This document shows positions 3,634 to 42,330 of a stretch of DNA of 64,000 bases, piece after piece. The translations under genes were made by a program, and so were the position numbers. The notes beneath the pieces were generated by a model. The model did not search any database, was not told the origin of the DNA, and saw only the letters and a list, made by a program, of their open reading frames with translations. Where the stretch lies: NCBI GenBank assembly GCA_973895155.1, contig OZ316895.1, forward strand, positions 18,547,880-18,611,879. The letters run 5' to 3'. Origin of the DNA: Marsupella aquatica. Lineage: Eukaryota; Plantae; Marchantiophyta. Positions within the stretch are counted from its first letter, which is position 1. Every line of letters starts with the position of its first letter.

Positions 3634-4068
3634 TCATATGCATTCCATACTTGAGTCTCCACACATTGACATTGGAAAACAATCACGGAACAACAGACAA
3701 TTCATAAAAACTTGGTCCATCTTTACATTGAAAGTATGGGTCTCAAAAAATTCCACACAGTAAAATTGTAAGAGTTGATGGTAACCTTGACATCCAGGAT
3801 TCTGCACTTCAATCGCGGCCCCCTCCTCAATCTCGGCCCCCTCCTCCTCGGCAGGAGCATTGGCCTCAATACTCTCCAAGTATTCTATAAACCTGGATTC
3901 CTTTGTTCCTTGTCCTCCCATGAATTGCCAGCTATGGTTGAATGCTTGAACTAGTGAATGTGTCAAACGTAGGGCTCGATGCACCTTCTCCAACTCCTCT
4001 GGATCCTCCAGGCCCACCTTCAATGCATCAAAGTTCACACTACAGGGAAGATAGCCTGGATACGACAT
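3634..4068 (-). CDS. Hypothetical 144-aa ORF inside the CACTA left arm
   Basis: Clean ATG-stop ORF with protein-like composition and an acidic EEGA repeat; no domain recognised. Confidence 0.3.
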   Translation of the reverse strand: MSYPGYLPCSVNFDALKVGLEDPEELEKVHRALRLTHSLVQAFNHSWQFMGGQGTKESRFIEYLESIEANAPAEEEGAEIEEGAAIEVQNPGCQGYHQLLQFYCVEFFETHTFNVKMDQVFMNCLLFRDCFPMSMCGDSSMECI

Positions 4069-4330: not shown

Positions 4331-4983
4331 TGTGACGCCGCCGGTACGGCGGTTAATGAGTGATTCGGTCTAACTACGCTCGGCACGCGCGTTAGGAGTG
4401 TCTTAGACCACTATTATTAGCATAACGACAGTATTTAGGTAATCATTATGGGTAGGATATCATTAGGCAATAAGGGGGAATTCAGGTTCGGACTGGCGGC
4501 TGGTCGCTATTCCCACACCCGGGTTACGAGCGTGGAGGGGCCCCTCCCTCGGGTCCGTATAACGAACTTAAGGAAGCGGCCACTGACACGCGCTGACTTA
4601 GACCGGCGGAGTGGCCGGCACACCACAAGCGTGAGCGGTTCAGCCTATGGGCGTCGAGGAGACGTCGGGGGATCGACAAGCCCTCAAGGTATAAAAGGGG
4701 AGCCAACCCTTTGTAGTGCACCAGTCCATCAGTCCACGCGCCAGCTTCGACCCCAGCTCTCTCGTTCGCTCTAAGTCGCCACTACTATCTCCTCTGAATG
4801 TCGCACATGATCCTCTCCAGCTCGGCCATTCGATTTTGGACGCAGTTCCTATCTACCGGAAGGCACTTGGCCGACTCATTGAAACACGCCAACCCGCGCC
4901 GATACGAAATCGAACGCGAGTACGAGCGAGCCATCCGCCTAGCAGGACGACACCACTACATCCTTAACTTTGACTACCCGTCT
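4331..4983 (+). repeat. Family A 5' LTR remnant (first ~650 bp)
   Basis: Matches 6694-7346 with about 11 substitutions counted by eye; TATAAAA at about 4690. Confidence 0.9.
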
Positions 4984-6726: not shown

Positions 6727-9591
6727 TTCGGTCTAACTACGCTCGGCACACGCGTTAGGAGTGTCTTAGACCGCTATTATTAGCATAACGACAGTATTTA
6801 GGTAATCATTATGGGTAGGATATCATTAGGCAATAAGGGGGAATTCAGGTTCGGACTGGCGGCTGGTCGCTATTCGCACACCCGGATTACGAGCGTGGAG
6901 GGGCCCCTCCCTCGGGTCCGTATAATGAACTTAAGGAAGCGGCCACTGACACGCGCTGACTCAGACCGGCGGAGTGGCCGGCACACCACAAGCGTGAGCG
7001 GTTCAGCCTATGGGCGTCGAGGAGACGTCGGGGGATCGACAAGCCCTCAAGGTATAAAAGGGGAGCCAACCCTTTGTAGTGCACCAGTCCATCAGTCCAC
7101 GCACCAGCTTCGACCCCAGCTCTCTCGTTCGCTCTAAGTCGCCACTACTATCTCCTCTAAATATCGCACATGATCCTCTCCAGCTCGGCCATTCGATTTT
7201 GGACGCAGTTCCTATCTACCGGAAGGCACTTGGCCGACTCATTGAAACATGCCAACCCGCGCCGATACGAAATCGAACGCGAGTACGAGCGAGCCATCCG
7301 CCTAGCAGGACGACACCACTACATCCTTAACTTTGACTACCCGTCTCAGAGCGAGCTTTACCGACCAGCAAAGGTATCCGGGTACTTCTTCAACGGAGAC
7401 AAATATATCGGGTTCTGGGAAGCATTGCTTCGGCTTCCGGATGAGGTCTTCAATATCCCGGGTACGATCGACTTGCAGCGACATCACTTTGACCACATCC
7501 CTGCTCATGTTCGGGCTATCATCAACAGCGAGTCTAGCACTACCCGTTCGACAAGATCGTCTGCACTCGCTTCGGAGAACTTCTACCAGCACCTGCAGAG
7601 CTTCACAAGAACTCGGCCAACAACCAACATGACCAACTCAGTCGTACCCGTACCCGTACAACCTCAGGCTCAGCTTCAGCTTCAGCCTCAGCCGCAGCCT
7701 AGCCAAACCCCACCACCGATCGCCCAGCCAGCACAAGTACGATCCGTCATCAACGCTGTGGATCTTAGCGATGACGACGAGGCTACCCTACCCTTGACCA
7801 GGCGGCCCAGAGGAACAAGCGCTCAGGGGGCCGATACCATATCGTCCCCACCCCCTGCTCTGACCCCAGGAGCGGCCCCGGCAGACAACATGGTGACCGT
7901 GGCCGACCCGGGCCCGTTACTAACGACAGTAGCACTACCCAGGCCCGATCGGGAGGATGGGGAGGTGTCACCTTCCCCAAGCCAGTCACGGGGGAAGAAG
8001 AGGAAGGAATCCGCCACTACGTCCGGGTTACCCTTGGCCACGGTAGCCGTGGCCAAGGTGACGATGCACCGCATGGGGGAAAACGTTCACAAAAACATCC
8101 TCCATCCCAAGCATGCAGTGTACCTGAAGACTCAGGGATTCGAGCACCTCGCCTCCCTTCCCTGGAACACTTGCAGGTACTACGGGGAGGACATGACGGA
8201 GTTCATCAGGAATTATGACGACGCGCGTCAACATACTCGGCTACGGGGAAGGAGTATGTCCCTCACGGAAGAACGGCTCAGGATGATCTTCGGGTTGCCC
8301 GAAGGTGACCATCGAGTCAAATCACGGGCTCCCGGGGGCAAGGGAGCCAAGTACCAATCTTCAAGTTTTCCCTCAGAGGGAGCAGTGGACAACGGGTTTA
8401 TGATGAAAACCTGCCTCATCCCCGAGATAGCTGAGCGACTGGAGTTCCAGAGGTACGCCCTCCACATGATGGAACCCCGGGGGGAGATCTCCGCCGCCCA
8501 GGTTATCCAGGTCGAGAACTATCAACCTAGGAGGTGGACGTCGTACTTCACTAAGAAATTCCATGAAGAGATGGAGCGGCGAAGGAAGACGCTGTACATT
8601 GGCGGGAAGGCGTATTTCGCTAGCCACATCGAGATCATTCTTGAGTGGTACGCCCGGTTTGATCGACGAACCCTTCCCCGTGTCAACGTTACAAAGCTGG
8701 TCCCAGCTAGGTGGGTTTTCCCAGCCTTGGAGAGACGGCCCCAGCCCGAGGCCCGAAGTCCAGCAGACACGCCAGCTTCACCCACCCCACCTCCACAAAT
8801 AGCTGTAGTTGTAACCGAGGAGGTACCGGATGGGTCGGGTGTCGCAACCGTTGATGCGACCCAATAGGCCGGGCTAAGTACAGAAGTCGGTACGGCAAAG
8901 GTCTTACCCGAGCCTGGTTCTCCCAAAGACCCACCGGTGGCTATTCCGGAGAACCGGACATTGCTACAGGAGGACGCTCCAGCCCCTTCCAACGTTACGT
9001 CCCCAGGGCTGGACGTCACTGCCCCGGCCCCCGCGCGTGTGGACGTCTGCCCGTGCCCAACTCCGGACAGGCACAACCTGGACCACCCGGAACTCTTCGT
9101 ACCGGGTACATTTCTGAACGGGCTTCTGGGAGATTTCTCTCATCAAATTGCCCGGGATACTGGGGAGTTCATGGCCCGGAAGGTAGCCTGTTTCTTCAAT
9201 CAGGAGTTGGTTGCCGCAGTAAAGGTAGGTCGGGCCCAGTCAGAGACCCTTCAGAGGATAGAGCGGTACCGGGTAGAGTCCGTGTACCTAAAGAACAAAG
9301 TTGCAGCTCAAGAGGCTGAGCTTCGGCAACTACGACCCAAGGTTGCAGCCGCCGATGAGTTGTTAGCAAAGGCGCACGCTCTTACCGCCCTAGCCGAACA
9401 GGCCAAAGCTGGGAACGAAGCCGAGATTACACGACTCCGGAACCAGATTGACAGTTTGAAGAATCAAACTGTCACTTGGCAGAAAGACCTGGAGGAGGCC
9501 GAGGAACGGGCCCAGTGGGACACGGCGGAGATAGCCACGCTGTAGGCCGAGGTGGCGCGGCTCCAAACCGAGGCCGAGAGGCAGGACCAGC

Positions 9592-11994
9592 TGTCACGCG
9601 ATTGACATGGGTCTTAACACCAAAGACGTCACTATGGGTGCCAAAACCATCTCCTTGTACCTGAGGATCACGAAGGGATGCTGTGAAGGCCGGTAAACAC
9701 CAATTTATGCCCTTAACACCAGACTATCATAACAAGACTCCGTCACACATCACCCAAGCTCAATCCCTAAGAACCAAGGTTGGGAATCAGATCCGCGCTC
9801 ATGATAGTTCTGGTGAGAAGGAGTCTTCATATCGGGCCCGTACACACAGGGCCTAGCGCTATGGTGCGCATAGGTCTATATGTATGCTTACTGTCATAGG
9901 TATGTTTCTATTCCGCCGTCGGAATGTACCCATAAACCAGTGACTCTTGACTGATTCCCGGCTTAGGGACTTCTAAGCCATTGCCCCACCACTCTGCCAT
10001 TCCACTCTCAGCAATCAGAGCTATGACAGTCCTCACCCAGCCCGCTTCAATGCACCCTGTACACCTCTCAGTGGCGCTGCTAGTCCCATCATACACTTAG
10101 ATTGCCTCACACACACACACATCCATGAGAGAAATGAGGCCTGAGAGGAAAACTCAATTAGATTCAACGATGTGCACAATAGTTCACTAAGAACACTTGA
10201 TCCGAACAATAGGCCCGAAGGCTGTCTACTCCAGATTGCAGCGTGCTTGCCCCGCAAGCCCCATGCTTGCCATGCAAGCTCAATCCTGAACCTGAGCCCG
10301 GCTCACTCCAGATTGCGACGGCATATTGGACTCAAACCAATCCCGTACTTGCCTTGCAAACTCAATCCTGAACTCAACCTCCTTCACTGCACTTCATTCT
10401 TGGGGGCACATACAGATCTCACACCTCCAATTCAGAACGTCAAGTTACGCATACATAGTTGACTCGACTTCAAAGCTGGTACCAGGCCTAACGGCGATCT
10501 ACCCCAGACTGCAATGAGGCCCGGCCTCACGCTTGCCCTGCAAGCTCCGCTCTGGCCATAGATCCTTAGTGCTCTCCACCAGACAAAGGCCGGGACTCCC
10601 CATGGATCACGTAGCCTTGCCAGACTGAACTGTAAATGCTCCTCCTGCTGCCCCTCAATCAGTGTCTCAGCCTCCCTAATGTGCTCACCACAAATCAAAT
10701 GGACATCCTCCCCACAGTTTACAATCACCAATACATCACCTATCACCAAGGCTCTGTATCGGGGGAAAAGAACCCAGTTGTGCTACTCACTAGAAAGAGC
10801 CACAATCCAGCTCGCAAACCTAGCAACCCGTTGCTGTGAAGCTTGGCTGATTACTCCCTGAGTAATAGCACAACCAAGCTCTCCCCAACACGCAGCGTCC
10901 AAGTCCAGCCTTGCTTGCACAGAGCTCCTCCTTGCTGCTCAGTCTAAGTGAGATCACACAACTGAAGTGCCCCCCCCATCTCTACCGGGGGGCTGCTCTA
11001 TATACTCTCATACTGAGCCCAAATGGCTAGGTACTATGTTGCTGGAGCCCCATCCCAGCCCTAACAGAGCCGCCACTATCTCTAACTACTGAACCCTAAC
11101 TCGCAGCTTTATTTCTATCTCGAATTGGCTATGTACTTCGGATTTGGCCCTCCTCCATGGTTTTCGCGAGCTTACGCCTCCTCTCCCGATTTCTGTATTC
11201 AACCATTTGCTGCGTGGATAGCAGCGTTGGAAGCGGCTTGAGCTCCTCTTTCCAACGAGGTCAATTATAGCCGATTTGGTCAAATACACAGAGAGTTATG
11301 CCCCCGCAACCGAGAGGGGGTACTCACTGTTGCGCTAACCCGAGTTACATAGCTAACCCGAGTTCGGCTAACCTAGCTATCCTATCTAACCCGAGTAGAG
11401 CTAACCCGTGGTCTCGGGTTAGGCCGCTACCCGCTATCCGCTAACCTAGCCTAAGCTGAGCCCGAACCCGAGCTTACCTATGCTAACCTGAGCCCGAGTT
11501 TAGGCTAACCCGAGTTCAATCTAATCCGAACCTAGGTTAAGCCTAAGCTGAAGCTGTGCTGACCTAAGCTAAGCTGAAGCCGTGCTTACCTGAGCTAAGC
11601 TGAAGCCGTGCTCACATAAGCTAAGCCGTGATCGAGTTTGGGTTAACCCGAAACTGAAGCCGAATCCGCTAATTCCGGCTATAAGTTAACCCGTCACACT
11701 AATCAGGCCGTATCTCTCTTAATACACCTCCGTTTCCCGAGTGTTTTATATCGATTTTACTCGCCTTGACCAGATCTTTCCAATGCTCTTTACAGATCCG
11801 GATTTGGTGACATATTGAAAGAGATATGGTCGTCGACCACCCGCGACATAGTTTTTATTTCCCTACTCTTAACGCCATGATTGCCCTTATTCTTGCCATC
11901 TTGCTAATTGTTATGTAATATCAATAGCTACTCCTTGCATACAGCAACCTACTTAATCAGATTACAAAATAAGGACCATGTCATTGGCGTCACA
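9592..11994 (-). mobile_element. Solo LTR, family C (2403 bp, no long ORF)
   Basis: tgtcacgcg...gcgtcaca with perfect TSD CCAGC (9587-9591, 11995-11999). Minus strand reads tgtgacgcc..cgtgaca like family A; minus-strand TATATA at 10999-11004. Confidence 0.9.
11334..11693. repeat. Degenerate tandem array (GCTAACCCGAG / GCTAAGCTGAAGCC units) in the family C LTR
   Basis: Repeated taacccgag and ctaagctgaagcc units, some inverted (ctcgggttag, gggttaaccc). Confidence 0.8.
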
Positions 11995-13096
11995 CCAGCT
12001 GGCGGGTAAACTGACAAGTGACGCCCAGCAGTTGGAGGAGGCTTGTCAGGAGGCAGCAGAGGAGACGGACGCGGTGAGGCAAGAGAACGAATCTCTGCTG
12101 GACCAGGTCCAGCTCCTCAAAGCGGACAATGACAGGCTCCGAAGGCAGCGGGATGGCCGCTCCCATTCAGGTGGCTCTGGCAAGCGTGCCAGGCATTAGC
12201 GGCAGAGTAGGAATAGAGTAGGATTAGGACTAGCTTAGTCAGGCTCTTGGGACAGGCACCTGCCTCAGGTATAGCATCGCTGCAGTGCTGTCCAGCCTGC
12301 ATAGATTAGGATCTTCTAATAAGACACAGCCGTTTCTGGCCTGACTGTCAGCTTAGTTAGGACCGTAGTCAGTGAATCTTCGGCAAGAGGACACCCCGTC
12401 CCTCGGCCCTTAGTATTTAGTGCACCCCCTCGGTAGAGACGGGGGGGGGTTTTAGTTGCAAAGTTGGGCGTCCGCGGTATGTGCGGGGAGTCCCGACCTC
12501 TGGGAATGAAAGAGTACCAAGGGGAGGGGGTAGGACTAAGCTCGCCGGGCGAGTGTGGAGCCGGGCTCCGTTGTAGTGTGCACCCTCGGCCTTGAACCTG
12601 TTCATTCCGGGGCTGTCGGGTCAACTAAGTGTACGCATATGTTCCCTTTGTAGTAAAATCCTTTCCCATCATTTTCCTTCGTGTAAATCGAGATTGTATG
12701 CATGTGCGCGTGTATGTGTGTGGGTTTCTCGTATATGGGTGGCAGTGCCAGGCCGAACGCACTACCCGAGACGTGCACAGGGTGCAGCCTGCGGGTAAGT
12801 GGTTGCGAGCACGGGTTGAGGACCTGTATCATCGAATCCGGATCGAAGGCGGACAGCACGAAGGCTTAGAAGCCCTTAAGCCGGGGTCGATCCTGCTATC
12901 GACTAAGGTACGTTCCGGCGGCGGAACACAAACCATACCTAGGAGGTGTCCGTATTTAGCAGTATGCGCACTTAGCGCTAGTTTACGAGAATAAGGTGCA
13001 TTACGTGCTTCCCTTCCTGCCCGAACCCTCAGATTTACGAGGGATATGCCCGTCTAAGCTGAAGTCTGAGTTAAAGCCGCAGCCGATGACGTGACA

Positions 13097-13390: not shown

Positions 13391-14499
13391 GGATGTACAT
13401 GATATATTCATCATATATGGACCCATTGTTGCCTATTGCATTACATTATATTTAATTAAATTTTTGATTATGATGTTGTATTAAATATGAATTTTAACAA
13501 TTGTAGGATGGTGCATATATTACCCTTCCACCTCATCCATCCATGATGATGATGTCAGCACGTGCCTTTCACCTACGTGCCACTCTGCATTTTTCTGATG
13601 AGGAAGATGTTGAGGGGGATAACGTGGAGCCTGGTGATATGGATAGTGACCATGGGGAGTATACCATGATGCATATGATGGAGAGGAGGGGGATGCACCC
13701 ATTCTTGAAGAGGATGCTTTTGCCCACCTTGTGGACGTTCACTTTGGACCACATGCACCTGAGGGTGAGAGGCCTACCATGGAAGTAGACCAGGAAGATT
13801 GGGACCAGTTGGAAATGGAAGCCAGAACTCCACTCTTCCTGGATTCTCCATCATCACGGTAAGTCTCATGATTGAATAGTATGTATATAGTTGAGGGTAT
13901 GCCCCAGCCCAACTAGCTAGTGAATGTGTGGACCATTACTTACCACACCCAATGTCATACCTCAAACTAATTGTGTACACGTACAATTCCCTGGTTTCAC
14001 AAATGCAAGTTGGATGCCACTTTGTTGATGTTGAATTTGCAGGGAGTTTTCAACACTTCAGACATCCATACAGATGCACTATTCCAGCTATTCCACAAAA
14101 AACTCTTGCCACAACCAAACACTCTCCCTGGGTGTGTGAGGGAGGCTAAGAAGTTGTTAACCTCAATTGGATTGGCTTTAGAGACTATCCACATGTGTCC
14201 AAGTGGTTGCATCCTGTACAGAGGGACATACTATGAGCATACACAGTGCCTAGAGGCACAATGTAAGCTTCCACGATACCGGCCTGATACCATCTGCAAA
14301 GAAATTCCAAAGAAGGTGATGTCCTCCTCTTGCTGGCATTGCAAGACATTTGCTATAGAATAAATTTAGGACGAGTCCATAGAGTTATGTTTGACAGAAT
14401 GTTGTTGTGATGCCTAGACAGGAATCACTCGGCCGGTTAAGTGGGTAAAGCAGGAAGGCACCCTAGGAACACCTTAGTATAGTGACAAAACAAGGAAAA

Positions 14500-14505
14500 T
14501 ATAAA
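14500..14505 (+). promoter_or_regulatory. Candidate TATA box for the family B LTR gene
   Basis: TATAAA ~95 bp into the LTR, conserved in the other B copies. Confidence 0.45.
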
Positions 14506-14778
14506 CAATTAGGGGCAACCATGGAACCCGGGCAGAGGCCGGAGGTAAGGCTGAGGGTGAAAACCCGATTAGGGTTAGGGCGCGTTAAGCATCGGCGGCT
14601 AGGAAGGATCAACGGGAAGAAGGACCGGCAGAGGAGAGGGGTAAGGAGCACTTGCAGGAGATGGTGGCTCATTTGCGAGCACGAACTAGGCAGACGACTA
14701 CGGGAGGCCAACTACTGTCAGCTGCTTAGGCAAGCACTCGGGGAGAGAGTAGATACCGACGATCGACCTAAGGAGGGT

Positions 14779-17700
14779 ATGAGCAACGTCAATCAAGCGG
14801 CACATTTCTGGGGATGCCTGTTTGAACGGGCAACTGAGTACATCAAGACTTACGAGGACGAGGAGTCAGAAAGGGCAGCTCGAGAACGGCAGGAGCTCGC
14901 TCGATTGTGGGAGCTGCACAAGACGGCTTTCTTAGGAGGCGAACTCATCAAGGACGATTTCCTGTGGACGCCTACTTCCAATCAACTCGACGATCTTCTG
15001 TTTTGCAAAGACAGCGTCGTCGGCATCCGAGAGGCCATCAAGAACTGCAACGACATACACTGGGAATTAAAGGGTAGCACGGAAAGGTGGACCCAGGCAA
15101 CGGTGCTAGGAGAAACCTCCACGGCAGCAGAGATGAAGAGGAAGGGGGCCGTCAACGATGAAGCCACCCCGGCAAAAAGAACGAGGTCGGCGGCACCAAA
15201 GAAGCCAGCCGAGCAGCAGAGCAGGAGGCAGGGAGAAGCCGAAGAGGAGGAGGTCGATCCCATCAAGGCCATTCCAACCAGGGATGACACCTGGAAGGGC
15301 TGGGCGGCAACCCTACCGGTGGAGGTGCAACTACATTTTGCACGGGAGGAGGATGCATGCTTTACGGCCATGCAGACCAAGAAGTACCAAGGCTTCATGG
15401 CCGGATCCGGCTTGGAGGCCTTTGTAAGATTACCATGGCTGAAACCGGAGGTACCGGAGTCAGACCTATTAGAATTCGTGGGGTCATGGGAACCCGAGAC
15501 CAATTGCACGAGGATATATGGGAGGGATTTCTATCTTACTCCCAAGGTAATTGCCGAAGTGTTTGGCCTGCCGATAGGCAATAAGACCAAAGTTGATACC
15601 AGGAAGACCTTGCCTGACAAGGAGTTCCGGTCGTTCCCCGGGCCATCAACGAAGAATGGCTTCTTCCGGAACACCTGCACCAACCCGCACATAGGAGAGA
15701 TGATCGACTTCTTGCGGGTGACCATGCATTGTAACTTGCCGAGGGCAGAGATCGGCAAGGCACAGGTCTATCTGGCAGAAAGGCCAGACCCAAGCCGGGA
15801 CTACAATGGGTACCTCCTCAACCAATTGAAGAAGATCTTAAAGGAGGAGCAGCAGGTAATCGGCATGGGGAGCGTGTCGCGGCTTGGCTATCACATGCCG
15901 CTGTTGTGCCGGTATGCCAGAGGTCAGACTTTTGCCCCGGTACTTCCCCTGCAGGTAAGGGCACCCGAGGAAGCTCCAACGCCGAGGCCGTTGGCTGAGA
16001 AGCCTCAACCACCTGTTAGTCCTACGATCGAGCAGGTGTTTAGGCCCAGGAAGGAAGACTTGCCGATGCAGCAACCAGGCATGCAGAGTCTGCTGAAACT
16101 ACTGGAGAAAGAAAAGAAATCGGCATCGGCAACAACAACGGCAACGGCAACAATGCAGGACACTACTACAGAGGTAGGCCTACACTGGCTCACAAGAGAA
16201 AACCCCTTTGCTGGAGACAAGGAGAGAATCAGGCCGGAATCCAAGCCAGGTGTTCGAATGTACGTGGGAACCTCAAGCTCCGAATCTGAGGCAGAATTGC
16301 CTGAAGCTCCTACCGACGAAGAGGAGAGGGAGAAGCCGGACGTCCAAGAGGTAGAGGAGGCAGTGGAGGACTGCAGCCATGATAATTCCGGCTATGGGTC
16401 GGACCATCACGTTCCAGGAGTAAGGACCTGTGGCCGGTTTGTCCCCACACTTCCAAGGGTAGTGCGAGGGGACCCCAACCAGCAGAGTAGCCCTGAGTCT
16501 CCCCCACCAGATGTTGCTCCCCCGAGCTTCGACGGCATAAAACAGACGGTGCAGGAATTTCAGGAGCGAATCAAGCAGGAGGAAGAGGCCGCCCTGGCTA
16601 AGGAAAAGGATTTACCCGGAGGAGATTGGCCGGAGGACATTAGGCGGCTAGCCGAAAAAGGAAGCAAACCTCTAGCCACGATTGAAGAGATCCGCAGGAC
16701 GGCTTGGGAGCAGAGGCCACGATGGGCGATGCCGATCACTTCTACTTACTCCACCTACGCTAAGAATAGAGCCATGGAGTATGGTGAGATGTGTGGGGAA
16801 CTTGCGCTCGGCATCTTTGGAGAGGAGTTGGAGGTAGGACCCTTTTTCCATAGGGAGCAGTTGGAGAAGCACCAATTAGAAGAAGCGGTGGCTTTAGAGA
16901 GAAGCAAGAAGGACGAGGTCATTCGGCGGCTTAGGAGGATGGAAGCCGAGATTGAAGATCTAAGGGCGGCCAAGAAAGCCCAAGATGAACTGCGGATTAA
17001 ACGACATGAGCTGAACATCATGCAGGGGCAGTTGGACACCGCACAGGCTGAAAATCAGAATATCAAGGATAAACTGACTCAGACGCAGGAAGAGTTGGCC
17101 GACACGATCAAAGAGAGGGAGAAGTGGAAGCAAGAGCTGAAGAATACAGAGGAGGCCCACATAACAGCCAACAGCCGGGCCATGGCGGAAACCCAAAGAA
17201 AGGAATGGGCGTTGAAAGGGGAGCTCGAGAAAATCCGCGGAGCCCTTGAGCAGAAGGAGGTCGAGTTAGGGAAATCCTATCAAGGGATTATGGCGCTGCA
17301 GCAGGAGCTTGCGTCCCTGACGGCCAGCTTCAAGGCCGACCTAAGGGAGAAGGACGAGATGCTCGAACAGACTTACGCCAAGATGAACCAGATGGAGTCT
17401 GTCATCATTGCAGAGCTCGACAAGGAGCTAAGAGCAACCCAGGAGGAGAGGGCTACCTTGAAGAAGGAATTGGAGGAAGCCCACAGGGAGCAGGAGGAGG
17501 CCAAAAACGAGCTGGAGGGGGCACGTAAGGACCTGGATGAAACCCAAGAGGAGTTGGAGGAAATCACGAGGAAGATGGAGAACCTACAGCGGCGGGCCGA
17601 CAACCAAACAGAGCGGCTGAAGAAACAAGCCGCAGTATTTAAATGCTTAGCTGCAGCAGGTCCATCTCCCGTTGGGACAAACCAGTTACCAGGGGTGGTA

Positions 17701-18144
17701 ATTGCCGAAGGACAAGCCGCGTCAACTGCACCAGTGCCGGAAGTAAGTGGGAAGGGGAAGGGACCAGCTGCCGAGCCACCAACGAAGAAGAAGCGGAAAC
17801 CTTCAGGGTCAAGGAGTAATACGACTTCACAGGCCGTGGTGATCAAGGAGGTAGACCCAGCACCGACCCCAGACAGGGTCACGGCTAAGGATCCAACTAC
17901 CCTAGGGGAAGGGGAGGCCGAAGCCGAGGGAGTGGCTGAAGCCGAAGCCGTGGGAGTGGCTGAGGCCGAAGCCGTGGGTATTGCCGAGGCCGGTGTCGAG
18001 GCTGAAGCCGAAGGTGGACCCAGTCAGGCCGATGGAGAGTTGACTCAGTCAAGGGCAGGTAATCTGTCAGTAGGCGGGCCAACGGTAGTGGCTGAGGAGG
18101 AAGTGTTGGGGGCGTCCATTGAGGATCCACCACCGGTGTCGTGA
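14779..18144 (+). CDS. Intact family B LTR-encoded protein (~1121 aa from MSNVNQ; frame open from 14482), conserved core plus coiled coil
   Basis: No stop over 1220 codons; start chosen by alignment to the family A N-terminus; long E/K/Q-rich heptad region and KKKRK basic patch. Confidence 0.88.
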   Translation: MSNVNQAAHFWGCLFERATEYIKTYEDEESERAARERQELARLWELHKTAFLGGELIKDDFLWTPTSNQLDDLLFCKDSVVGIREAIKNCNDIHWELKGSTERWTQATVLGETSTAAEMKRKGAVNDEATPAKRTRSAAPKKPAEQQSRRQGEAEEEEVDPIKAIPTRDDTWKGWAATLPVEVQLHFAREEDACFTAMQTKKYQGFMAGSGLEAFVRLPWLKPEVPESDLLEFVGSWEPETNCTRIYGRDFYLTPKVIAEVFGLPIGNKTKVDTRKTLPDKEFRSFPGPSTKNGFFRNTCTNPHIGEMIDFLRVTMHCNLPRAEIGKAQVYLAERPDPSRDYNGYLLNQLKKILKEEQQVIGMGSVSRLGYHMPLLCRYARGQTFAPVLPLQVRAPEEAPTPRPLAEKPQPPVSPTIEQVFRPRKEDLPMQQPGMQSLLKLLEKEKKSASATTTATATMQDTTTEVGLHWLTRENPFAGDKERIRPESKPGVRMYVGTSSSESEAELPEAPTDEEEREKPDVQEVEEAVEDCSHDNSGYGSDHHVPGVRTCGRFVPTLPRVVRGDPNQQSSPESPPPDVAPPSFDGIKQTVQEFQERIKQEEEAALAKEKDLPGGDWPEDIRRLAEKGSKPLATIEEIRRTAWEQRPRWAMPITSTYSTYAKNRAMEYGEMCGELALGIFGEELEVGPFFHREQLEKHQLEEAVALERSKKDEVIRRLRRMEAEIEDLRAAKKAQDELRIKRHELNIMQGQLDTAQAENQNIKDKLTQTQEELADTIKEREKWKQELKNTEEAHITANSRAMAETQRKEWALKGELEKIRGALEQKEVELGKSYQGIMALQQELASLTASFKADLREKDEMLEQTYAKMNQMESVIIAELDKELRATQEERATLKKELEEAHREQEEAKNELEGARKDLDETQEELEEITRKMENLQRRADNQTERLKKQAAVFKCLAAAGPSPVGTNQLPGVVIAEGQAASTAPVPEVSGKGKGPAAEPPTKKKRKPSGSRSNTTSQAVVIKEVDPAPTPDRVTAKDPTTLGEGEAEAEGVAEAEAVGVAEAEAVGIAEAGVEAEAEGGPSQADGELTQSRAGNLSVGGPTVVAEEEVLGASIEDPPPVS

Positions 18145-21033
18145 CGGTGCAAGGGCGCCGTTCCTTTTAGGGAGGGCGGACGTGGAGGGAGGAGGCGTGA
18201 GTGGGCAGGGCGGGCGCGGATCTCCACGTTTAGGATTAGGATCAGAACCAGGAGCGGCCCTGACACTTAGCTTAGTGGGATTGCGGTCCCACTGGTAGGA
18301 GCAACACTTGTGCTCCTGCCTTGCTGTACATAGGTAGATTCGGGCAAGTAGATTACTGTCAGGTAGATTAGGCTTACGATGCAAAGAATGGCGGATCCAC
18401 TACCAGGATAAGTACCTGGGCAGCGGGGAGCTCAGGGCCTCTTCTTTAGCAAGTTTTTAGTTTGCACCAGCCGGGCTGGGATCAAGTAGTACGAGAAGCT
18501 CTCGGTTAGTCATACAGTGACCCTTGTGTATATTCATGTTTCCTCATGCCTAAGAGCTGAATAGAGTTGGCCTCACGGCTTAGTTCGCAGAACTTGTGTA
18601 TGAGATGTACTGTTTGTATGGCAAGTGCATGGTATGACTCAGTCAGAATGAGTCATTTTGCTATTTGTGTGTCGCATTAACTTGTGTGAAGAGTGCCCAC
18701 ATCAACAGAAGGAAGGAAAGTAAGCAGGGGAGTGAGAGTTGGATGTGTCGAGCTGAGAGAGGTCTTAGCGGCTTAACCAAGCCTATTGGGGATCATTCCG
18801 ACGGCGGAATCCAAACATACCTAACAAGAAGACAGGGGAAGACAGGGGAAGGCCTATATTAGGCCGGCTACGTATCTCATGACCCGATGAAGGATCTGTC
18901 CAGTATATGTGTGTAAAATGTTAATAGTAGTAGCAGAAGGTTAGCAGCGTCCCATGCCGCTAAGCCGCGGAAACGGCCTCGCCAAGCACGAAACCTGCGG
19001 GAATCGGCTTGAGCTGGGGGGTTTCTTGGGTTTAGGGAGCCATGGGACGCACCACAGTTGTTTCAATTATTCAAACCTACTTTTGTCCATTTTCCTCGTC
19101 ATTTCCAATGTATGCACACGTACGTGAATTTCTTCAGATGTAACTTACTCTTTGACTGACAAGTAAGGTTTTTACGTTGTCTAGCACATGGTTACCATAT
19201 ATTTATGTTGTGTATTACAATGTTAAATGAAGCACGCAACATTACTAACGTTGCTAAGAAACTTTACTTTGTATGGTACGTTGTATGGGTGAATTGACGT
19301 CGTGGGAGACAAAGTAAAGTTTTATTTAACGTTAGAGTGATGGTTATGACACTGTTTATGGTAGGTCTTTAGGTATTTCCCGATCACACCCCGACTACAA
19401 CATCTTTATCGACGGAAACATTTATCAACACTTCAAACGTGGCATGCTGAGAACAAATCTCCACCAGGGATTATGCGATATCACCACGATAGTCTAGCAT
19501 GGAAGCACATCGACAACACTTGGCCAGATTTTTCTAGGGATCCAAGGAATGTTCAATTGGGGTTAGCAATAGATGGGGTAAACCCATACAAGCAACGACG
19601 GAAGAGTAAGTCCATATGGCCAGTTCTTTTGCTCAATCCAAATATCCCTCCATGGTTGGCGATGAAGAAGGGTCATGTTGTCCTCCTTGCTATCATTCTG
19701 GGTCCTCAGGCCTGTAAGAATCCAGACATTTGCTTGGCTTCAGCTTATGAAGAGTTGCAAAAGCTATGGGAGTTTGGGGCAGTGACCACAGATGTGACTC
19801 GTACACCAGATAATGGGAGGACATTTAATATGAGAGCAATGATCACCCATTGCACCACGGATGGTCCAGGTAATTCTCAGTCATAGAAATATTTCAGACA
19901 TGCATTGTGCATGGTTCTATTGCATATGCCAATGGTTTTTGGCCTGAATGTTTTAAATTCATTCACAGGTATGGGCACAATATCTGGCTTGAAGGTGGCC
20001 AGTTCTTCAGCTTGCCCTTCATGTGGTCCTGAGTTGCATGAGAGGTACTCTAAGCATCTACACAAAACCACATATGAGGGTAGTAGGGTCCGTTTGCCAA
20101 TGGGCGATATATTGCAACATAACACCACACATTGGGCTGGGACTGAGTTTAGGCCATGTCCCAATGGGCCTTCAACTGAGGGTCAAATTCAAATGGCAGA
20201 GAAAGTGGAGGCAAAGTTACTTCAACCTAAGCATTATGGTGTCAATTGTCGCTCAGCTTTGTGGGACTTGCCTTATTGGAGGGTAAGTAAAATTAGATTA
20301 AATCTATTTTAAGTTAGTGACTTGTAGTATTCTCTTTTTGAGTTTCTGACTAGCAAAACCTAGATCTTCATCTTGCAGAGACTCCAGATCAGATGGTTGT
20401 TGGACCCCATGCATATTGAAGTAAATGTTGCCAAGAATCTGGTGAAGCACATTTATGGGAGGAATGATATTGACTCATGCAGTCTGAGAGGATGCAAAGC
20501 AGGTTGGAGTGGTGAAGAGTTGTTGGATAACTCGAGATGGGGAGAAGCCACCTACTCCTTGGGTTTTGCCAAAAGAGATTTTGAAGGAGATGAACTGGAT
20601 GATATGTGAAATGAAGTTCTCTAGCCATTACGGAGCCGGCTTCTGTGGGTGCACTACAAGGGATGACCACATACCCCCAATAGGCTTGAAGTCTCACGAT
20701 CATCACAAGTTGATTCAGCATGTGTTACCTGCTGTCTTGCATTCTTGCGATGATTATAGAGAGTGAAGCCTACTCTGATTGATAGTATATGAGATGTGCT
20801 CCATTTTTAGGTTAGCATAGTTTTGTTGGCATATATTTATGATATGATCATTGCATATTTTTATGATACTAATAATTTGACAAAATTTTGAGTACCCCAT
20901 ACAAGTGGGTATGCGCCAAGGAAATAAAGGGGAGTGAGATTCCCAAGATGAGGGAATGGTCGGCCAGTGTTATGTGCAATATGGAGAAGGTGTTTAACCC
21001 ATGTATTTTTGATATGAAGTTGCATTTGCTATG

Positions 21034-21568
21034 TGTCGTGACATATAGTATCGTAGCCATAGTGTATCAAAAACATACAAAGCACTGGCAATGCACATGT
21101 GCAAGCTGCTAGCAACCAACATGCATAGAAAAAGTCCCATCACATTTACAAGTGCCAAGAAAAAGCAAATGAGGTGGTATGTACGTAGTGGAGGTGTAAA
21201 CCTCTGTATCATAAAAGGCGTAAGAGAAACAAGCATACTGAAATCGAATCAAAAACCGGCGGGATGCCAAGATCAGTCGGGAACATCTAACAAATCATTG
21301 TGTGAATCCCGTGTACGGAACCGACGAGCACTGTCTGAGCTCTGTCAACAGCAATTCAAGAAGAACTGAAAACCAACAACGAAAGACATGCCCTAAGTAA
21401 ACAAAGTCCTGGCGTCACACTAACAAGCGCGTTTGCTTCAAGAACGCCTGGAATTTGCTATAAAAACATGTCGCTAACTCAAGTAGTACACTAGCCCTAA
21501 CTACATACCTAGCGGGCATGTGAGGGACATGCCGATGTGCATAAGAGGCACTGTCCCTCGGCATGACA
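21034..21568 (-). repeat. Probable LTR (535 bp) of the PHD-integrase Gypsy element, inserted in the transposase
   Basis: tgtcgtg...catgaca inverted termini; the transposase frame is lost here just after HLL. Confidence 0.65.
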
Positions 21569-21570: not shown

Positions 21571-21747
21571 TGTTGTGACATATAGTATCGTAGCCATAGT
21601 GTATCAAAAACATACAAAGCATTGGCAATGCACATGTGCAAGCTGCTAGCAACCAACATGCATAGAAAAAGTCCCATCACATTTACAAGTGCCAAGAAAA
21701 AGCAAATGAGGTGGTATGTACGTAGTGGATGTGTAAACCTCTGTATC
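21571..21747 (-). repeat. 177-bp second copy of 21034-21210
   Basis: Near-identical direct repeat, next to a C-run that is PPT-like on the minus strand. Confidence 0.85.
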
Positions 21748-21949: not shown

Positions 21950-24900
21950 TGTGGTGCGTCCCATGGCTCCCCAAACCCAAGAAAACCCCTTGCTCAAGCC
22001 GATTCCCGCAGGTTTCGTCCTCGGCGAGGCCGTTTCCACGGCTTAGCGGCATGGGACGCTGCTAACTCTCCTTCTACTACTATAAACATTTTACACACAT
22101 ATACTGGACAGATCCTTCATCGGGTCATGAGATACTTAGCCGGCCTATTCTAGGCCTTCCCTTGTATTCCTCTCCTGGTCTTCCATTAGGTATGTTTGGA
22201 TTCTGCCACCGGAATGATCCCCAATTGGCTTGGTTAAGCCGCTAAGACCTCTCTCAGCTCGACACATCCAACTCTCACTCCCTTGCTACTTCCCTTCATT
22301 GATGTGGGCACTCTTCACACAAGTTAATGCGACACACAAATAGCAAAATGACTCCTTCTAACTGAGTTATACCATGCACTTGCCATACAAACAGTACATC
22401 TCATACACAAGCTTTGCGAACTAAGCCATGAGGCCAAATCTATTCAGTTCTTAGGCATGAGGAAACATGAATATACACAAGGGTCACTGTATAACTAACC
22501 GAGAGCTTCTCTTACTACTTGATCCCAGCCCTGCTGGTGCAACTAAAAACTTGCTAAAGAAGAGGCCCTTGACTCCCCGCTGCCCAGGTATTTATCCTGG
22601 CAGCGGATCTGTCCAGAACTTCACTGCATAAGCTTGATCTATCCTACCTGTAATCTACCTAACTGTACAGCGAGGCAGGAGCACAAGTGTTGCTCCTACC
22701 AGTGGATCCGCCATCCCACTAATCTAAGTGTCAGGGCCGTCTCCTGGTCTTGATCCTAATCCTAAACTTGGAGATCTGAGCCCGCCCTGCCCACTCACGC
22801 CTCCTACCTCCACGTTCGCCCTTCTTAAAAGGAACGGTGCCCTTGCACCGTCACGGCACCGGTGGCGGATCCTCAATGGACGCCCCCAACGCCTCCCCCG
22901 CAGCCACTACCGTCGGTCCGCCCTCTGACAGATTACCTGCCCCGGACCGAGTCAACTCTTCATTGGCTTGACTGGGTCCACCCTCGGCTTCGGCCCCAGC
23001 ATCGGTCACGGCCCTCGATACGGCTTCGGCCTCCTCGACATGTTCTAGTGGAGAATCCGGTACCTTGGCTTCATCAATAGCTATCCCGGCCTCGGCCTTG
23101 CCATCCCCACCTTCTTCAACAGGTGGATCTACTGTCGTGATCATGCCGGAGGGTGGTGTCGGGTTGACCTCCTGGGTTACAACGGTTTGGTAAGCCGTAT
23201 AACTCCCAGACCCAGAAGGTTTCCGCTTCTTTTTCTTCCCTGTTTCGGTAGCTGGTCCCTTCCCCTTGCTACCTACCTCCGGCACCGGGGCATGTGTCGA
23301 TCTCGGCGTGTCTTTTGGCCAGTACCCCTCCTGGTAATGGAGTTCCCACAATTGGAGTTGGACCAGATAAAGCTAAGCACTTAAATACTGCGGCCTGTTT
23401 CTTCAGCCGCTCCGTTTGGTTGTTGGCCCGCCTCTGTAAGTTCTCCATCTTCTTGGTGGTTTCCTCCAACTCAACCTGGGCTTCCTCCAGGTCCTTCCAT
23501 CCCTCCTGCAGCTCCTTTCTGGCTTCCTCCAATTCCAATTTTAAGGTAGCCCTCTCCTCCTGGGTTGCTCTTAGCTCATTGTCGAGCTCCGCTACGACCT
23601 CAGACTCCATCTTATTCATCTTGGCATAAGTCTGGTCGAGCTGGTCGTCCTTCTCACGCAGGTCGGCCTTGAAGCTGGCCGTCAGGGACGCAAGCTCCTG
23701 CTGCAGTGCAATAATCCCTTGATAGGATTTCCCTAACTTGGCCTCCTTTTGCTCAAGGGCTCCGCGGATATCCTCAAGCTCTCCTTTCAACACCCTCTCC
23801 TTTCTCTGAGTCTCCGCCATGGCCCGGTTGTTGGCGGTTATGTGGGCCTCCTCTACATCCCTCAGCTCCTGCTTCCACTTTTCCCTGTCCTTGACCGCGC
23901 CGGCCAACTCTCCTTGGGTCCGAGTCAGTTTATCTTTGATAATCTGATTGCCAGACTGAGTGGCATCCAATTGTCCTTGCATGATGTTTAGCTCATGCCG
24001 CTTAATCCGCAGCTCATCTTGGGCTTTCTTGGCCGCCTGTAGGTCGTCCACCTCGGCTTCCATCTCCCTAAGCCGCCGGATGACCTCGTCCTTCTTGCTT
24101 CTCTCCAAAGCCACCGCTTCTTCTAATCGGTGTTTCTCCAACATCTTCCTCTGGAAAAAAAGGTCCCTGCTCCAACTCCTCCCCAAAGATGCTGAGCACC
24201 AGGTCCCCACACATCTCCCCGTACTCCATGGCTCTATCTTTAGCATAGGTGGAGTAAGTAGAAGTCATTGGCATCAACCACCTTGGCCTCTGTTCCCAAG
24301 CCGCCTTGCGGATTTCTTCTAGGTGGCAAGAGGGTTGCTTCTTTTTTTGGCAAGCCGCCTGATGTCCTCCGGCCAATCTCCTCCTGGTAAATCTTTTTCC
24401 CTAGCCAGGGCTGCTTTCTCTTCCTCCCTAAGTCGCTCCTGAAATTCTTGTGCTGTCTGCTTTATGCCATCAAAGCTCGGGGGAGCAACCTCTGGTGGGG
24501 GAGACTCGGGGCTACTCTGCTGGGTGGGGTCCCCTCGAACTACTCTTGGAAGTGTGGGGATAAATCGGCCACAGGTCCTTACTCCTCGAACATGATGATC
24601 CGACCCATAGCCGGAGTTATCATTGCTGTAGTCCTCCACCGCCTCCTCCACTGCTTGGACTCTCGGCTTCCCCCTCTGTTCCCCTGGTCCTGTAGTGAAA
24701 ACGGCCTCACAGATCACGGGCTCTGGTTCCTCCTCTGGTTTCCAGGCTGTCCTCTCCCTCTGCTTTCCGCGGGAAGGAGCCTTAGGCTGCTCTGCCTCCG
24801 ATTCGGGGCTTGAGGCTCCCACATACATTAGAACTCCCGGCTTGTGTTCCGGCCTCCTTCTCTCCTTGGCTCCGGTAAAGGGGTTTTCCCTCCTGAGTCG

Positions 24901-26680
24901 GCTTAGGCCGGCCTCTAGGGCAGTGTCCTGTACCGGTGCCGTTGCCGTTGCCGGTGCCGGTGCCGTTCTCTCCTACTCTAGCAATTTCAGCAGATTCTGC
25001 ATGCCTGATTGCTGCATCAGCAAGTCTTCTTTCCTTGGCTGAAACACCTGCTCGATCGTAGGACTGGCAGGCTGGTTGGGCTCTTCTATTGCTGGCCTTT
25101 GCTCCGAAACCTCCTCCGGTGCCCTTGCCGATAGGGGAAGTACTGGGCAAAGATTTGACTTCTGGCATACCGGCACAATAGCGGCATGTGATAGCCAAGC
25201 CGGGACACGCTTCCCACGCCGATCACCTGCTGTTCCTCCTTCAAGATCTTCTTCAGTTGGTTGAGGAGGTACCCGTTGTAATCCCGGCTTGGGTTTGGCC
25301 TTTCTGCCAAGTAGACCTGAGCCTTGCCAATCTCTGCCCTCGGCAAGTTACAATGCATGGTCACCCACAAGAAATCGATCATCTCTCCGATGTGCGGGTT
25401 GGTGCAGGTGTTCCGGAAGAAGCCATTCTTCGTTGATGGTCCTGGGAACGACCGGAACTCCTTGTCAGGTAAGGTCTTCCTGGTATCAACCTTGGTCTTA
25501 TTACCCATCGGCAAGCCAAACACCTCGGCAATCACCTAAGGAGTGAGATAGAAATCCTTCCCATACACCCTCGTGGAATTGGTCTCGGGTTCCTATGATC
25601 CCACAAATTCTAATAAGTCGGAGTCCAGCACCTCCGGCTTCAGCCATGGTGATCTTACAAAGGCTTCCAAGCCGGATCCGGCCATGAAGCCCTAGTACTT
25701 CTTGGTCTGCATGGCCGTAAAGCATGCATCCTCCTCCCGTGCAAAATGTAATTGCACTTCCTCTAGTAGGGTCGCCGCCCAGCCTTTCCAGGTGTCATCC
25801 TTTGTTGGAATGGCATTGATGGGATCGACCTCCTCCTCTTCGGCTTCTCCCTGCCTCCTATTCTGCTGCTTTGCTGGCTTCCTTGGTGCCGCCGACCTCG
25901 TTCTTTTTACCGGGGTGGCCTCTTCGTTGTTGTTTCCTTTCCTCTTCATCTCGGCTACTATGGATGTTTCTCCTAGCACAGTTGCCTTTGTCCACCCCTC
26001 CGTACTACCCTTCAACTCCCAGTGCGCGTCGTTGCAGAGGTTGATGGCTTCCCAAATGCCGATGATTCTATCTTCGCACAACAGAAGGTCATCGAGCTGA
26101 TTGGCAGTAGGAGTCCACAAGAACTCGGCCTTGATGAGTTCTCCTCCTAAGAAGGCAGACTTTTGCAGATCCCACAGTCGAGCGAGCTCCTGCCGTTCTC
26201 GAGCTGCTCTCTCCGATTCTTCGTCCTCGTAAGTCCTAATGTACTCAGTTGCCCGTTCGAACAGGCATCCCCAAAAATGTGCCGCTTGATTGACATTGCT
26301 CATACCCTCCTTGACTCGATCGTTGGTATCTGCTCCCGCCCAGAGTGGTTGCCTAAGCAGCTGACAGTAGTTGGCCTTCCGTAGTTGTCTGCCCAGTTTG
26401 TGCTTGCAAATGAGCCACCATTCCTCGCGAGCGGTCCTTACCCCTCTCCTCCTCTGGTCTTTCCTCCCGTTGGTTACCCCTAGCCGCCGATGCTTAGCGC
26501 GCCCTAACCCTAATCGTGTTCTCTCCCCCGACGTCCTTCCCTCCGGCCTCGGCCCGGGTTCCATAGTCATCCTTAATTGTTTATATTTTCCTTGTTTTTG
26601 TTATTGTACTAATGTGTTTATAGGGTACACCTCCGTTTTCCCCACCTAACTGGCCTAGTGATTCCTGGCTAGGCATCACA
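21950..26680 (-). mobile_element. Solo LTR, family B (4731 bp)
   Basis: Reverse-complement B termini with perfect TSD CTTTG. Confidence 0.93.
22851..26303 (-). pseudogene. Family B LTR gene, degraded
   Basis: Fragments 25692-26570, 25086-25535, 24319-24828, 23269-24246 and 22851-23351 match the intact B protein. Confidence 0.88.
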
Positions 26681-28474
26681 CTTTGCATGGGTAATCAATA
26701 GGTGGGATCCAAGTAGAAGTGACAATGGTGGGATCTAGGTTAGGCAGATGACAAGAGGCGCAATTCTTGGCATTGTCAGCAATTGTGCGCCCATCTGCCC
26801 CTTGTAACTCTAGCACTCTAGACGGTTGAATAGCCTTAACCCTAAGAATGGTACGACTGGTAGAGGTGTCCAGGGTGTTGTTAGCTTGCCGCTGCAAGTA
26901 CACAAAATCTCCCACATCAAACTTCCTGACCTTGGGCTGAAAAGTGCCCCCTCGTGTGTGTGCATAACGTAGTGTGTCCCTATGTTGTGCAATGCCAAAT
27001 TCTCCATGGCCATGGGCATAACCCTCTTGAATAGGGCAGCCCTCTCAGAGATCACATCAGACCAAGTCACAGCTGAATCCAAGTCCACCACCTGAAGCAT
27101 GTGAGCAGCAATAGTAGAAGGCAGAACTGGGTGACGACCAAGCAACAAAAAGTAGGGAGAAAAGTTAGACAATGATGCATGTCTAGACATCCTATACCCC
27201 ATGGCAATGTAGGGTAAGGCCAGGTCCCAATCCTCCTTGTTTTTGGTGAGGCAAATCTTCCAGAGGCCCTTCTTGCATGTCTGAACCATGTGCTCTGCCA
27301 AGCCATTTTCCTGTGGGTGATCTCGTGATGTCCGGCGATGATCAATGAGGGCATGATCAAGCAGCTCCTGGAACTCTCCTCTAAACTCTGAGCCCTGGTC
27401 AGTGAGACATTCTGCACAAGCTCCAAAGCGGCTAAGAACTTCTTGAAGGAATGCTTGGCTGGTGCTATGAGAGGTCTTATCCGGCTATGCCACAAGTTCT
27501 ATCCCCTTGGAGAAATGCTCTATCATGATCATGATGTAGAGATTACCCCGAGACATGAGGGGTAATTCTCCACCCAAATCACATGACCAGCAATAAAACA
27601 TGCTTGTGGTGCGTCCCATGGATCCCTAAACCCAACAAACCCCCCTGCACAAGCCGATTCCCGTAGGTTTTGCTCTCGGCGAGGCCGGTTCCGCGGCTTA
27701 GCGGCATGGGACGCTGCTAACTTCATTCTACTAACATTTTACACACATATACTGGACAGATCCTTCATCGGGTCATGAGATACGTAGCCGACCTCTTCTA
27801 TGTCTTCCCTTGGCCTCCTCTCTTTGTCTTCCTTTAGGTATGTTTGGATTCCGCCGTCGGAATGATCCCCAATTGGCTTGGGTAAACCGCTAAGACCTCT
27901 CTCAGCTTGACACATCCAACTCTTACTACGTTGCTTACTCCCTTCTTGGTTGATGCGGGCAATCTTCAAACAAGTTAATGCGACACACAAATAGCAAAAT
28001 GACTCCTTCTGATTGAGTTATACCATGCACTTGCCATACAAATAGTACTTCTCATACACAAGATCTGTGAACTAAGCCGTGAGGCCAACTCTATTCATCT
28101 CTTAGGCATGAGGAAACATGAATATACACAATGGTCACCGTATAACTAACCAAGAGCTTCTTTTACTACTTGATCCCAGCCCTGCTGGTGCACTAAAAAC
28201 TTGCTAAAGAATAAGACCCTCAACTCCCCGCTGCCCAGGTACTTATCCTGGCAGTGGATCCGCCTAATTCCTTGCAGCGTAAGCCTAATCTACCTAACTA
28301 TAAACTACCTACGTACAGCGAGGCAGGAGCACAACTGTTGTTCGGATCCGCAATCTCACTAATCTAAGTGTCAGGGCCGTCTCTTGGTCTTGATCCTAAT
28401 TCTAAACTTGGAGATTTGAGCCCGCCCTGCCCACTCACGCCTCCTTAAAAGGAGTGGCCCTCCACCACGTACTG

Positions 28475-31400: not shown

Positions 31401-31946
31401 TGCACTTTCTCGGGGAGGGTCGCCGCCCCGCCTTTCCAGGTGTCATCCCTTATTGGAACGACATTAATGGGGTCAACCCTCTTCTTTGGCTTCTCCCTGC
31501 CTCCTGCTTCCCTGCTCGGCTGGCTTCTTGGGTGCCACCGACCTCATTCTTTTTGTAGGGGTGGCCTCTTCATTGATGTTCCCTTTCCTCTTCATAGCGG
31601 CTGCCGTGGATGTTTCTCCTAGCACGGTTGCCTTTGTCCACCCCTTTGTGCTACCCTTCAACTCCCAGTGTATGTCGTTGCAGCGGTTGATGGCCTCCCG
31701 GATGCCGACAATTCTGTTCTCGCAAAACAGAAGGTCGTCTAGCTCGTTGCCAATAGGTGTCCACAGGAATTCGGCCTTGATGAGTCCTCCTAAGAAGGCA
31801 GACTTCTACAGCTCCCATAGTCGAGCGAGCTTGTGCCTTTCTCGAGCTGCTCTCTCCGATTCTTTGTCTTCGTAGGTCCCAATGTACTCAGTTGCCCGTT
31901 CGAACAGGCATCCCCAAAAATGAGCAGCTTGATTGACGTTGCTCAT
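28475..31946 (-). pseudogene. Family B LTR gene, degraded
   Basis: Fragments 30875-31333, 30158-30694, 29159-30097 and 28475-29035. Confidence 0.88.
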
Positions 31947-32081
31947 ACCCTTCTTGAGTTGATTGTCAGTATCTGCTCCCACCCCAAGTGCTTGCCTAAG
32001 CAGCTGACAGTAGTTGGCCTCCCGTAGTCATCTGCTTAGTTTGTGCTTGCAAATGAGCCACCATTCCTTGCGATCGGTCCT

Positions 32082-42302: not shown

Positions 42303-42330
42303 TATAAAAGGGGAGCCAACCCTTTGTAGT
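42303..42330 (+). promoter_or_regulatory. Upstream TATA module (P1) ahead of the LTR gene
   Basis: TATAAAAGGGG-agccaa-CCCTTT, 108 bp before ATG 42411; present in all A copies. Confidence 0.6.

Follow-up and report, generated by a model that had tools for sequence, protein, structure and literature searches.

The window analysed here is a stretch of 64,000 nucleotides from Marsupella aquatica (GenBank assembly GCA_973895155.1, contig OZ316895.1, positions 18,547,880 to 18,611,879 of the forward strand), which contains copies of two retrotransposon families with long terminal repeats (LTRs), termed A and B; in both families the LTR encloses a long open reading frame (ORF). The analysis centres on a family-A solo LTR, solo 1, which has TG and CA ends and is flanked by the target-site duplication (TSD) GTTGT. 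Solo-LTR formation is viewed as a process that disarms LTR retrotransposons, and LTRs are annotated as non-coding; a sequence-only reading that preceded this work proposed that the deletion route of the host had left here a full copy of a gene, and the ORF does lie inside the LTR and is whole in solo 1. A full family-A element is present on the minus strand (27605-61079), with its genes in the Ty3 order gag-protease (PR)-reverse transcriptase (RT)-RNase H (RH)-integrase (INT); a polypurine tract (PPT) at the integrase end is followed directly by the first base of the LTR, and the last base of the LTR is followed directly by the primer-binding site (PBS). These junctions, together with the TG..CA ends and the TSD, bear out the proposed homology between solo 1 and the terminal repeats of the gag-pol element.

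Solo LTRs and the gene they contain

In the self-comparison of the window, solo 1 is 81-85% identical to four further family-A copies. When four public sequencing runs (X1, X2, X3 and X6) were compared as contigs, loose ends were found at 14406 (X3) and at 19056 (X2, X3, X6), contigs from X1 and X6 continued past 19056 directly into the PBS of the window element, and one X2 contig joined 14372 to 19057, which fits an empty site; the read depth in solo 1 exceeds that of its right flank by at least two orders of magnitude (X1, X2, X3). Solo 1 is a true and recent solo LTR. That such 4.65-kb units are themselves mobile, inserted directly by the enzymes of a parent element and not left over from recombination, is very improbable: three solos with perfect TSDs do lie within 64 kb, and the family-B LTR bins reach ~5-6 times the depth of the internal bins in two runs (~4.7x in X1 and ~5.9x in X2, where 2x is expected without solos, depth being no copy number), but the solo has neither a PBS nor a PPT of its own, the same subfamily is seen with the PBS attached, and perfect TSDs are also what intra-element recombination leaves.

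The frame of solo 1 is open over 1207 codons, from ATG 14521 to 18144; a 1207-aa reading was rejected, since the ratio of non-synonymous to synonymous substitution rates (dN/dS) is 0.92-1.94 in 14521-14778 and selection is seen only from ATG 14779. The resulting ORF of 1121 aa corresponds to the ~1120 aa proposed earlier. From ATG 14779 onwards dN/dS is 0.18-0.31 across six copy pairs covering at least 797 codons, and not near 1, the value named beforehand as speaking against the gene; shifted frames of the same copies give 1.0-1.4. The comparison of solo 1 with the second family-A solo gives 0.27 (Fisher p 5e-41), and the core domain described below gives 0.09-0.12 in five of the six pairs and 0.21 in the sixth; between the two LTRs of the full family-A element, a young pair, it is 0.71, the value expected after insertion. 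The LTR ORF is thus a real gene, on which purifying selection is seen in comparisons of copies; it stands between the true LTR ends, and copies of it occur in both LTRs as well as in solos. The selection measured can derive wholly from the transposing lineage.

Within the window the ORF is open in one of the three solos and in none of the six other LTR copies; the four remaining family-A copies have stops or frameshifts, and the intact cassette of the earlier claim holds only at the level of sequence. Solo 1 is the sole intact copy of nine, as would be the case had it been domesticated and its ORF kept by host selection, and 9 of 13 differences that separate it from most contigs fall at third codon positions (p 0.009; the 13 were taken among 40 listed of 226), a bias compatible both with a young sub-lineage that is active and with selection at a later time. 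Domestication is nevertheless extremely unlikely, as near-identical copies are abundant in the public runs, one run has an apparent empty site, and youth together with selection in the transposing lineage accounts for the intact frame.

The same layout recurs in family B, whose complete element has LTRs of ~4.0 kb that are 98.9% identical, each with an ORF; in the LTRs of this family a TATA box and a CT-rich leader precede a frame of ~878 codons. The ORF is broken in all four family-B copies of the window, but the frame is open at the level of the family, since the covering contigs in all four runs lack the stop of the 3' LTR copy, and its dN/dS is 0.22 (p 5e-21) against 0.12 for the B integrase. 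The cores of the A and B ORFs are homologous (29% identical, E 2e-19) and, as the pol proteins of the two families share only 58% identity, the LTR-gene layout is old and common to both. In A (36303-36330) and in B (52000-52055) the integrase frame stays open across the PPT and extends by a few codons into the 3' LTR; several relatives end in a peptide like REDAHG, and their LTRs may likewise begin directly after pol.

Table 1. Position and strand of the features discussed, in window coordinates
Feature	Position	Strand	Remarks
Family-A solo LTR (solo 1)	14406-19056	+	4651 bp; TG start, CA end
TSD GTTGT, left of solo 1	14401-14405	+	
TSD GTTGT, right of solo 1	19057-19061	+	
TATA box with its context, probable LTR-gene promoter	14494-14509	+	identical in 4/4 copies
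Upstream in-frame extension, probably 5' untranslated region	14521-14778	+	dN/dS 0.92-1.94
Intact ORF	14779-18144	+	1121 aa: N-terminal domain, predicted VANC-like core, low-complexity linker, coiled coil, acidic tail
Core domain, aa 172-394	15292-15960	+	predicted fold like VANC21
Long predicted coiled coil, ~aa 695-955	16861-17640	+	dN/dS 0.20-0.28 vs solo 1; weak coiled-coil-type Pfam matches
Basic KKKRK cluster, putative nuclear localisation signal	17785-17799	+	family B: KKRK
3' non-coding part, probably ancestral LTR	18145-19056	+	912 bp; TTAGG cluster at start
PPT-like relic, 9 bases past A stop	18153-18176	+	best forward match to terminal PPT of L001
Second family-A solo LTR	21950-26680	-	TSD CAAAG; ORF broken, stops and frameshifts
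3' LTR of full family-A element	27605-36314	-	interrupted by family-B solo; ORF broken
Internal region of family-A element	36303-56632	-	PBS, gag (split by nested B element), PR, RT, RH, INT
5' LTR of family-A element, remaining part	56633-61079	-	ORF codons ~654-1120
Further family-A LTR copy	61079-64000	+	leaves window; ORF broken
Older family-B element, 3' LTR	6694-13096	+	2.4-kb insert; ORF broken
Family-B solo LTR	32082-36067	+	4.0 kb, TSD GTCCT; homologous ORF broken
Complete family-B element	41945-56026	+	TSD TTTGT; LTRs 41945-45932 and 52023-56026
Family-B LTR ORF	52489-55125	+	878 codons, one in-frame stop in 3' LTR copy

The copies of the two families are nested repeatedly (27605-64000), with the B solo in an A LTR, the B element in A gag and an A copy within the 5' LTR of the A element. 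The remnant of this 5' LTR is cut twice, by that family-A copy and by a 2.1-kb insert (57515-59646) which lies directly past the ORF stop, is single-copy in the window and has no clear ORF. The 2.4-kb insert in a B LTR (9594-11993) has short ends of terminal-inverted-like type, is flanked by a direct repeat of ~8 bp and looks like a non-autonomous DNA transposon, and at 4331-6726 there is an internally deleted B element in which the 653-bp start of the 5' LTR is joined in frame with RNase H-integrase and yields a chimeric ORF of 642 aa. A 177-bp direct repeat of 98% identity (21034-21210 and 21571-21747) is found between the two A solos, and an integrase fragment of a more distant LTR element, 27% identical to the B integrase, occupies 26681-27604.

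The predicted protein

The A and B proteins are alike in their basic cluster and long coiled coil. Neither has a transmembrane segment (the highest 19-residue hydropathy being 0.98 in A and 1.18 in B), and an env-like role was rejected on this ground. Pfam gave nothing above cut-off for the window proteins, only weak coiled-coil matches; in particular, neither DUF1985 nor PF10536 (PMD) was matched. A profile of the five window cores found 72 relatives. Ten of these were checked, and all four that bear an organism name at NCBI come from liverworts (three from Calypogeia and one from Riccia). Among 41 relatives scanned by Pfam, Transposase_32 was matched in four and DUF1985 in one, all below cut-off (the DUF1985 match having 23 bits against a cut-off of 35), and PF10536 in none. 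The Atlas leads for the core were DUF1985 (0.88) and PMD (0.87, in a cluster with 14% PMD carriers); for the N-terminal 174 aa Atlas gave nothing usable, and no match was obtained in the full-length protein search or in a search among proteins of 1368-3905 aa.

The cores were modelled with a pLDDT of 89.9 (A) and 87.8 (B) and were searched against a library of 48,161 solved chains, in which a match was counted at Z 5 or more. Each core gave a single match, VANC21 bound to DNA, with 207 residues aligned in both cases (A: Z 8.1, rmsd 4.1, next 2.1; B: Z 8.3, rmsd 4.0, next 2.4); with Foldseek, VANC21 was matched at E 1.6 and TM 0.46 by A and at E 7e-3, probability 1.00 and TM 0.49 by B, the other rows being at most 0.19 (at most 0.14 for B). 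No PMD structure was among the matches of the fold search, and a viral fold library returned one nameless row (E 0.03) and nothing named. The VANC21 match is of middling score; it stands alone, spans the whole domain and fits the sequence leads.

The gene may be real and its protein may have some other job in the element cycle, such as chromatin tethering or integration targeting, RNA export or a particle scaffold formed through the coiled coil; it would then matter for full elements only, solos being inert by-products. This alternative, which can be entertained tentatively, agrees with the host chromatin roles also known in the fold family (available part of PMC5418596), with the unknown functions of plant accessory ORFs (PMC7264820), with the broken state of two of the three solos and with an N-terminal domain that resembles nothing usable; it is countered by the sole structural neighbour, a DNA-bound anti-silencing protein, and by the conserved TATA of the gene itself, which needs nothing from the internal region.

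Candidate cis elements and proposed origin of the giant LTR

The TATA box noticed in the sequence-only reading is the TATAAA at 14500, whose context is kept in all four A copies possessing that end; another candidate, at 18854, is present in one of the four and was rejected. One U-rich stretch follows the ORF in each family (~18445-18744 in solo 1). TTAGG is the top 5-mer common to the non-coding LTR parts of A and B, with ten occurrences per family on the sense strand, and any common 5-mer that frequent was seen in 6 of 500 shuffles; the clusters lie in the 5' leader and just past the ORF stop in both families, and the motif is a candidate target of the LTR protein or a host-factor site. The 3' non-coding parts of the two families cannot otherwise be aligned; the best stretch in common, with an E of 3e-4, is a hairpin-like TTCCG..CGGAA followed by CATACCTA (18796-18823 and ~55843-55871), a candidate cis element for packaging or priming. 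Searches for Rfam families and for tRNA genes gave no match.

These elements also bear on the anatomy of the LTR, as the ORF could belong to a giant R and not to U3, one 5' promoter yielding both the mRNA of the gene and the genomic RNA through read-through of the 3'-end signal. The 5' TATA as the sole one kept in all copies and the single U-rich stretch past the ORF fit this arrangement, which is however unlikely, since it would require a strong-stop DNA of ~4.5 kb, the 3' non-coding parts (912 bp in A, 901 bp in B) have the size of the plain LTR of the relative L001, and the second TTAGG cluster begins directly past the stop in both families. A giant R would alter the anatomy and not necessarily the role of the protein.

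Relatives with the gene outside the LTR were considered as a source of information on its origin; nine of the 64 parts of a metagenome collection were scanned, and among 79 pol-related loci the match to the core profile was strong in one and weak in three. In L001, a collapsed element, the order is pol, purine tract, ORF of 742 aa, second purine tract, LTR of 0.99 kb, PBS and gag; the ORF carries a core of the window type (E 8e-9), and the context of the terminal PPT closely resembles that of the integrase-end PPT of A and B. The purine tracts on either side of this accessory gene (3753-3770 and 6534-6573 of L001) are identical in their last eight bases, and the first of them is possibly a central PPT. 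The full element L025 has LTRs of 1.6 kb and an internal ORF of 913 aa (Transposase_32 E 3e-7, profile comparison probability 60), while L003 has an internal ORF of 1226 aa and an LTR of 1.4 kb; L003 was rejected as another example of a gene housed in each LTR because its 6.2-kb repeat, taken as an assembly wrap or a tandem, begins in the internal region and the real PPT comes after the ORF. The PBS is common to A and B, has no match in viral contigs and differs from that of L001, L003 and L025, which is presumably of the tRNA-Asp type.

In an RT tree made from 27 of the 79 loci and 58 of 120 pol matches, A and B form one clade with three other proteins (98), and L001, L003 and L025 fall outside it. 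The nearest named RT to those of the window is from Riccia (62% identity), named angiosperm matches having 40-54%; the window RTs and Riccia lie in a separate clade of 37 rows (97), in a quick tree without labelled references. Since L001, L003 and L025 lie outside the A and B clade and the published extra ORFs of Athila/Tat (OTA) elements are internal (PMC7264820 and the available part of PMC6317226), the internal position is probably ancestral. The accessory gene was probably captured into the LTR; the 3' non-coding parts match L001 in LTR size, and a PPT-like relic past the A stop, though not significant, fits this reading. The ancestor would have had the order pol, accessory gene, PPT and ~1-kb LTR; with a move of the plus-strand priming site to the integrase end, the gene and its promoter would have turned into an enlarged U3, with the old LTR persisting as the final 0.9 kb of the present one.

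Proposed role and comparison with known systems

The interpretation preferred here, held with about even confidence, is that the LTR gene of A and B encodes a VANC-like, sequence-specific DNA-binding factor which would counter silencing at the LTRs of its own family, also when it is produced from solos. The 5' TATA would drive the gene and the 3'-end signal of the LTR itself would end the transcript, making a solo self-sufficient; the protein, predicted to be nuclear, would recognise a short motif through its core, with the clustered TTAGG as candidate, would multimerise through the coiled coil and would oppose methylation or Polycomb marks. The solos are probably passive, decaying carriers, among which young ones like solo 1 could yet supply protein in trans. 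The action in trans suggested by the sequence-only reading gains support from the predicted fold, as VANC acts on related copies (available part of PMC5735166). A wider and rather doubtful proposal is that in a bryophyte retrotransposon lineage the anti-silencing gene moved into the LTR and was spared by solo formation, and that a growing pool of stand-alone genes would unsilence full elements in trans.

Several points weigh against the anti-silencing role and the origin proposed for the gene. The structural comparison is middling by the scale of the tool (Z ~8, rmsd 4, 9-11% identity), the Foldseek E-value of the A core is 1.6, the A and B models were built on one common alignment and hence are not independent, the profile has no sequence match to VANC21, and the Pfam results for the window proteins and their relatives stay below cut-off. 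The fold also leaves the direction of the effect unfixed, as MAIN/MAIL1, host proteins of like fold, are credited with silencing in one source (PMC5418596) and with opposition to Polycomb in another (bioRxiv 2024.09.27.615353), both according to the accessible portions of these sources. TTAGG could be a site of a host telomere-repeat factor, and eight of the nine LTR copies in the window are broken. As regards the origin, the L003 ORF shows weak homology (probability 6), the RT tree comes from a quick search with midpoint root, and the PPT-like relic is not significant, 10 of 100 shuffles scoring equally, and is absent from family B.

A selected gene of 2.6-3.4 kb in each LTR of two high-copy families means that solos can be genes, which annotation tools would take for host genes or overlook. 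The relatives with the gene outside the LTR offer a concrete route to giant LTRs, and the likeness in predicted structure to VANC21 provides a function that can be tested for plant accessory ORFs of unknown role (PMC7264820). If the proposed role is true, anti-silencing of the VANC type would extend from DNA transposons of eudicots to retrotransposons of early-diverging land plants, and would be suggested for accessory ORFs of the Athila type in general.

Among known systems, VANC21/DUF1985 of the VANDAL Mutator transposons (PDB 9lnj, 9lnk) binds short motifs in the non-coding parts of the transposon and removes methylation there, as reported in the available part of PMC5735166. The window protein is similar in its predicted core fold (Z 8.1-8.3), in its coiled coil and in a short motif, the candidate TTAGG, clustered in the non-coding parts of the element; it differs in being encoded in the LTR of a Ty3 retrotransposon and not in a Mutator-type DNA transposon, in an identity of 9-11%, in falling below the Pfam cut-off and in motif clusters that are not long tandem arrays. 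DUF1985 and the plant mobile domain (PMD), the domain of PMD-A of Gypsy elements and of MAIN/MAIL1, are reported to be structurally alike (bioRxiv 2024.09.27.615353; PMC13547354, both in part); PMD-A is, like the window gene, carried by a retrotransposon, and PMD is the second Atlas lead for the core (accessible text of PMC5418596 and bioRxiv 2024.09.27.615353); in contrast, the window gene has no PF10536 match, and an LTR location is unreported for PMD in those portions.

The extra ORFs of the OTA elements (Athila ORF-1, Ogre PMD, Retand Transposase_28) are likewise conserved sense accessory ORFs past pol in non-chromovirus Ty3 elements (PMC7264820; PMC6317226, in part), relatives of the window gene weakly match Transposase_32, and LTRs of up to ~5 kb are known in OTA from the same partial sources. 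Long LTRs of unknown meaning were noted for an OTA-type group (available part of PMC1142308), and Tat lineages without the additional archaeal-type RNase H (aRH), among them Z1/Z2, occur in liverworts, the accessible sections of PMC10508981 and PMC13468544 not speaking of ORFs in their LTRs; in the B pol only the RT-linked RNase H was found, whereas Tat (TatI-III, Ogre, Retand) has the archaeal-type enzyme in addition (PMC6317226, in part). The OTA ORFs are internal, as far as these partial sources describe them, and are lost on solo formation, whereas the window gene is in the LTR, occurs in two copies in each element and outlasts solo formation. The Athila ORF is placed after pol and ahead of the PPT; in the window elements the PPT is at the integrase end and the ORF comes after it.

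No plant element whose LTR holds a full gene was found in a literature search, which did not cover the Repbase and REXdb supplements. The sag gene of mouse mammary tumour virus (MMTV) is a protein gene in the U3 of an LTR. It resembles the window gene in lying inside the LTR and being copied to both ends, and differs in belonging to an animal retrovirus and in encoding a much shorter membrane protein, the window protein having ~1100 aa, no transmembrane segment and a probably nuclear location. Genes within LTRs are rare, yet not unique; what is new here is the size of the gene, its presence in two families, its traceable origin and the predicted VANC-like fold.

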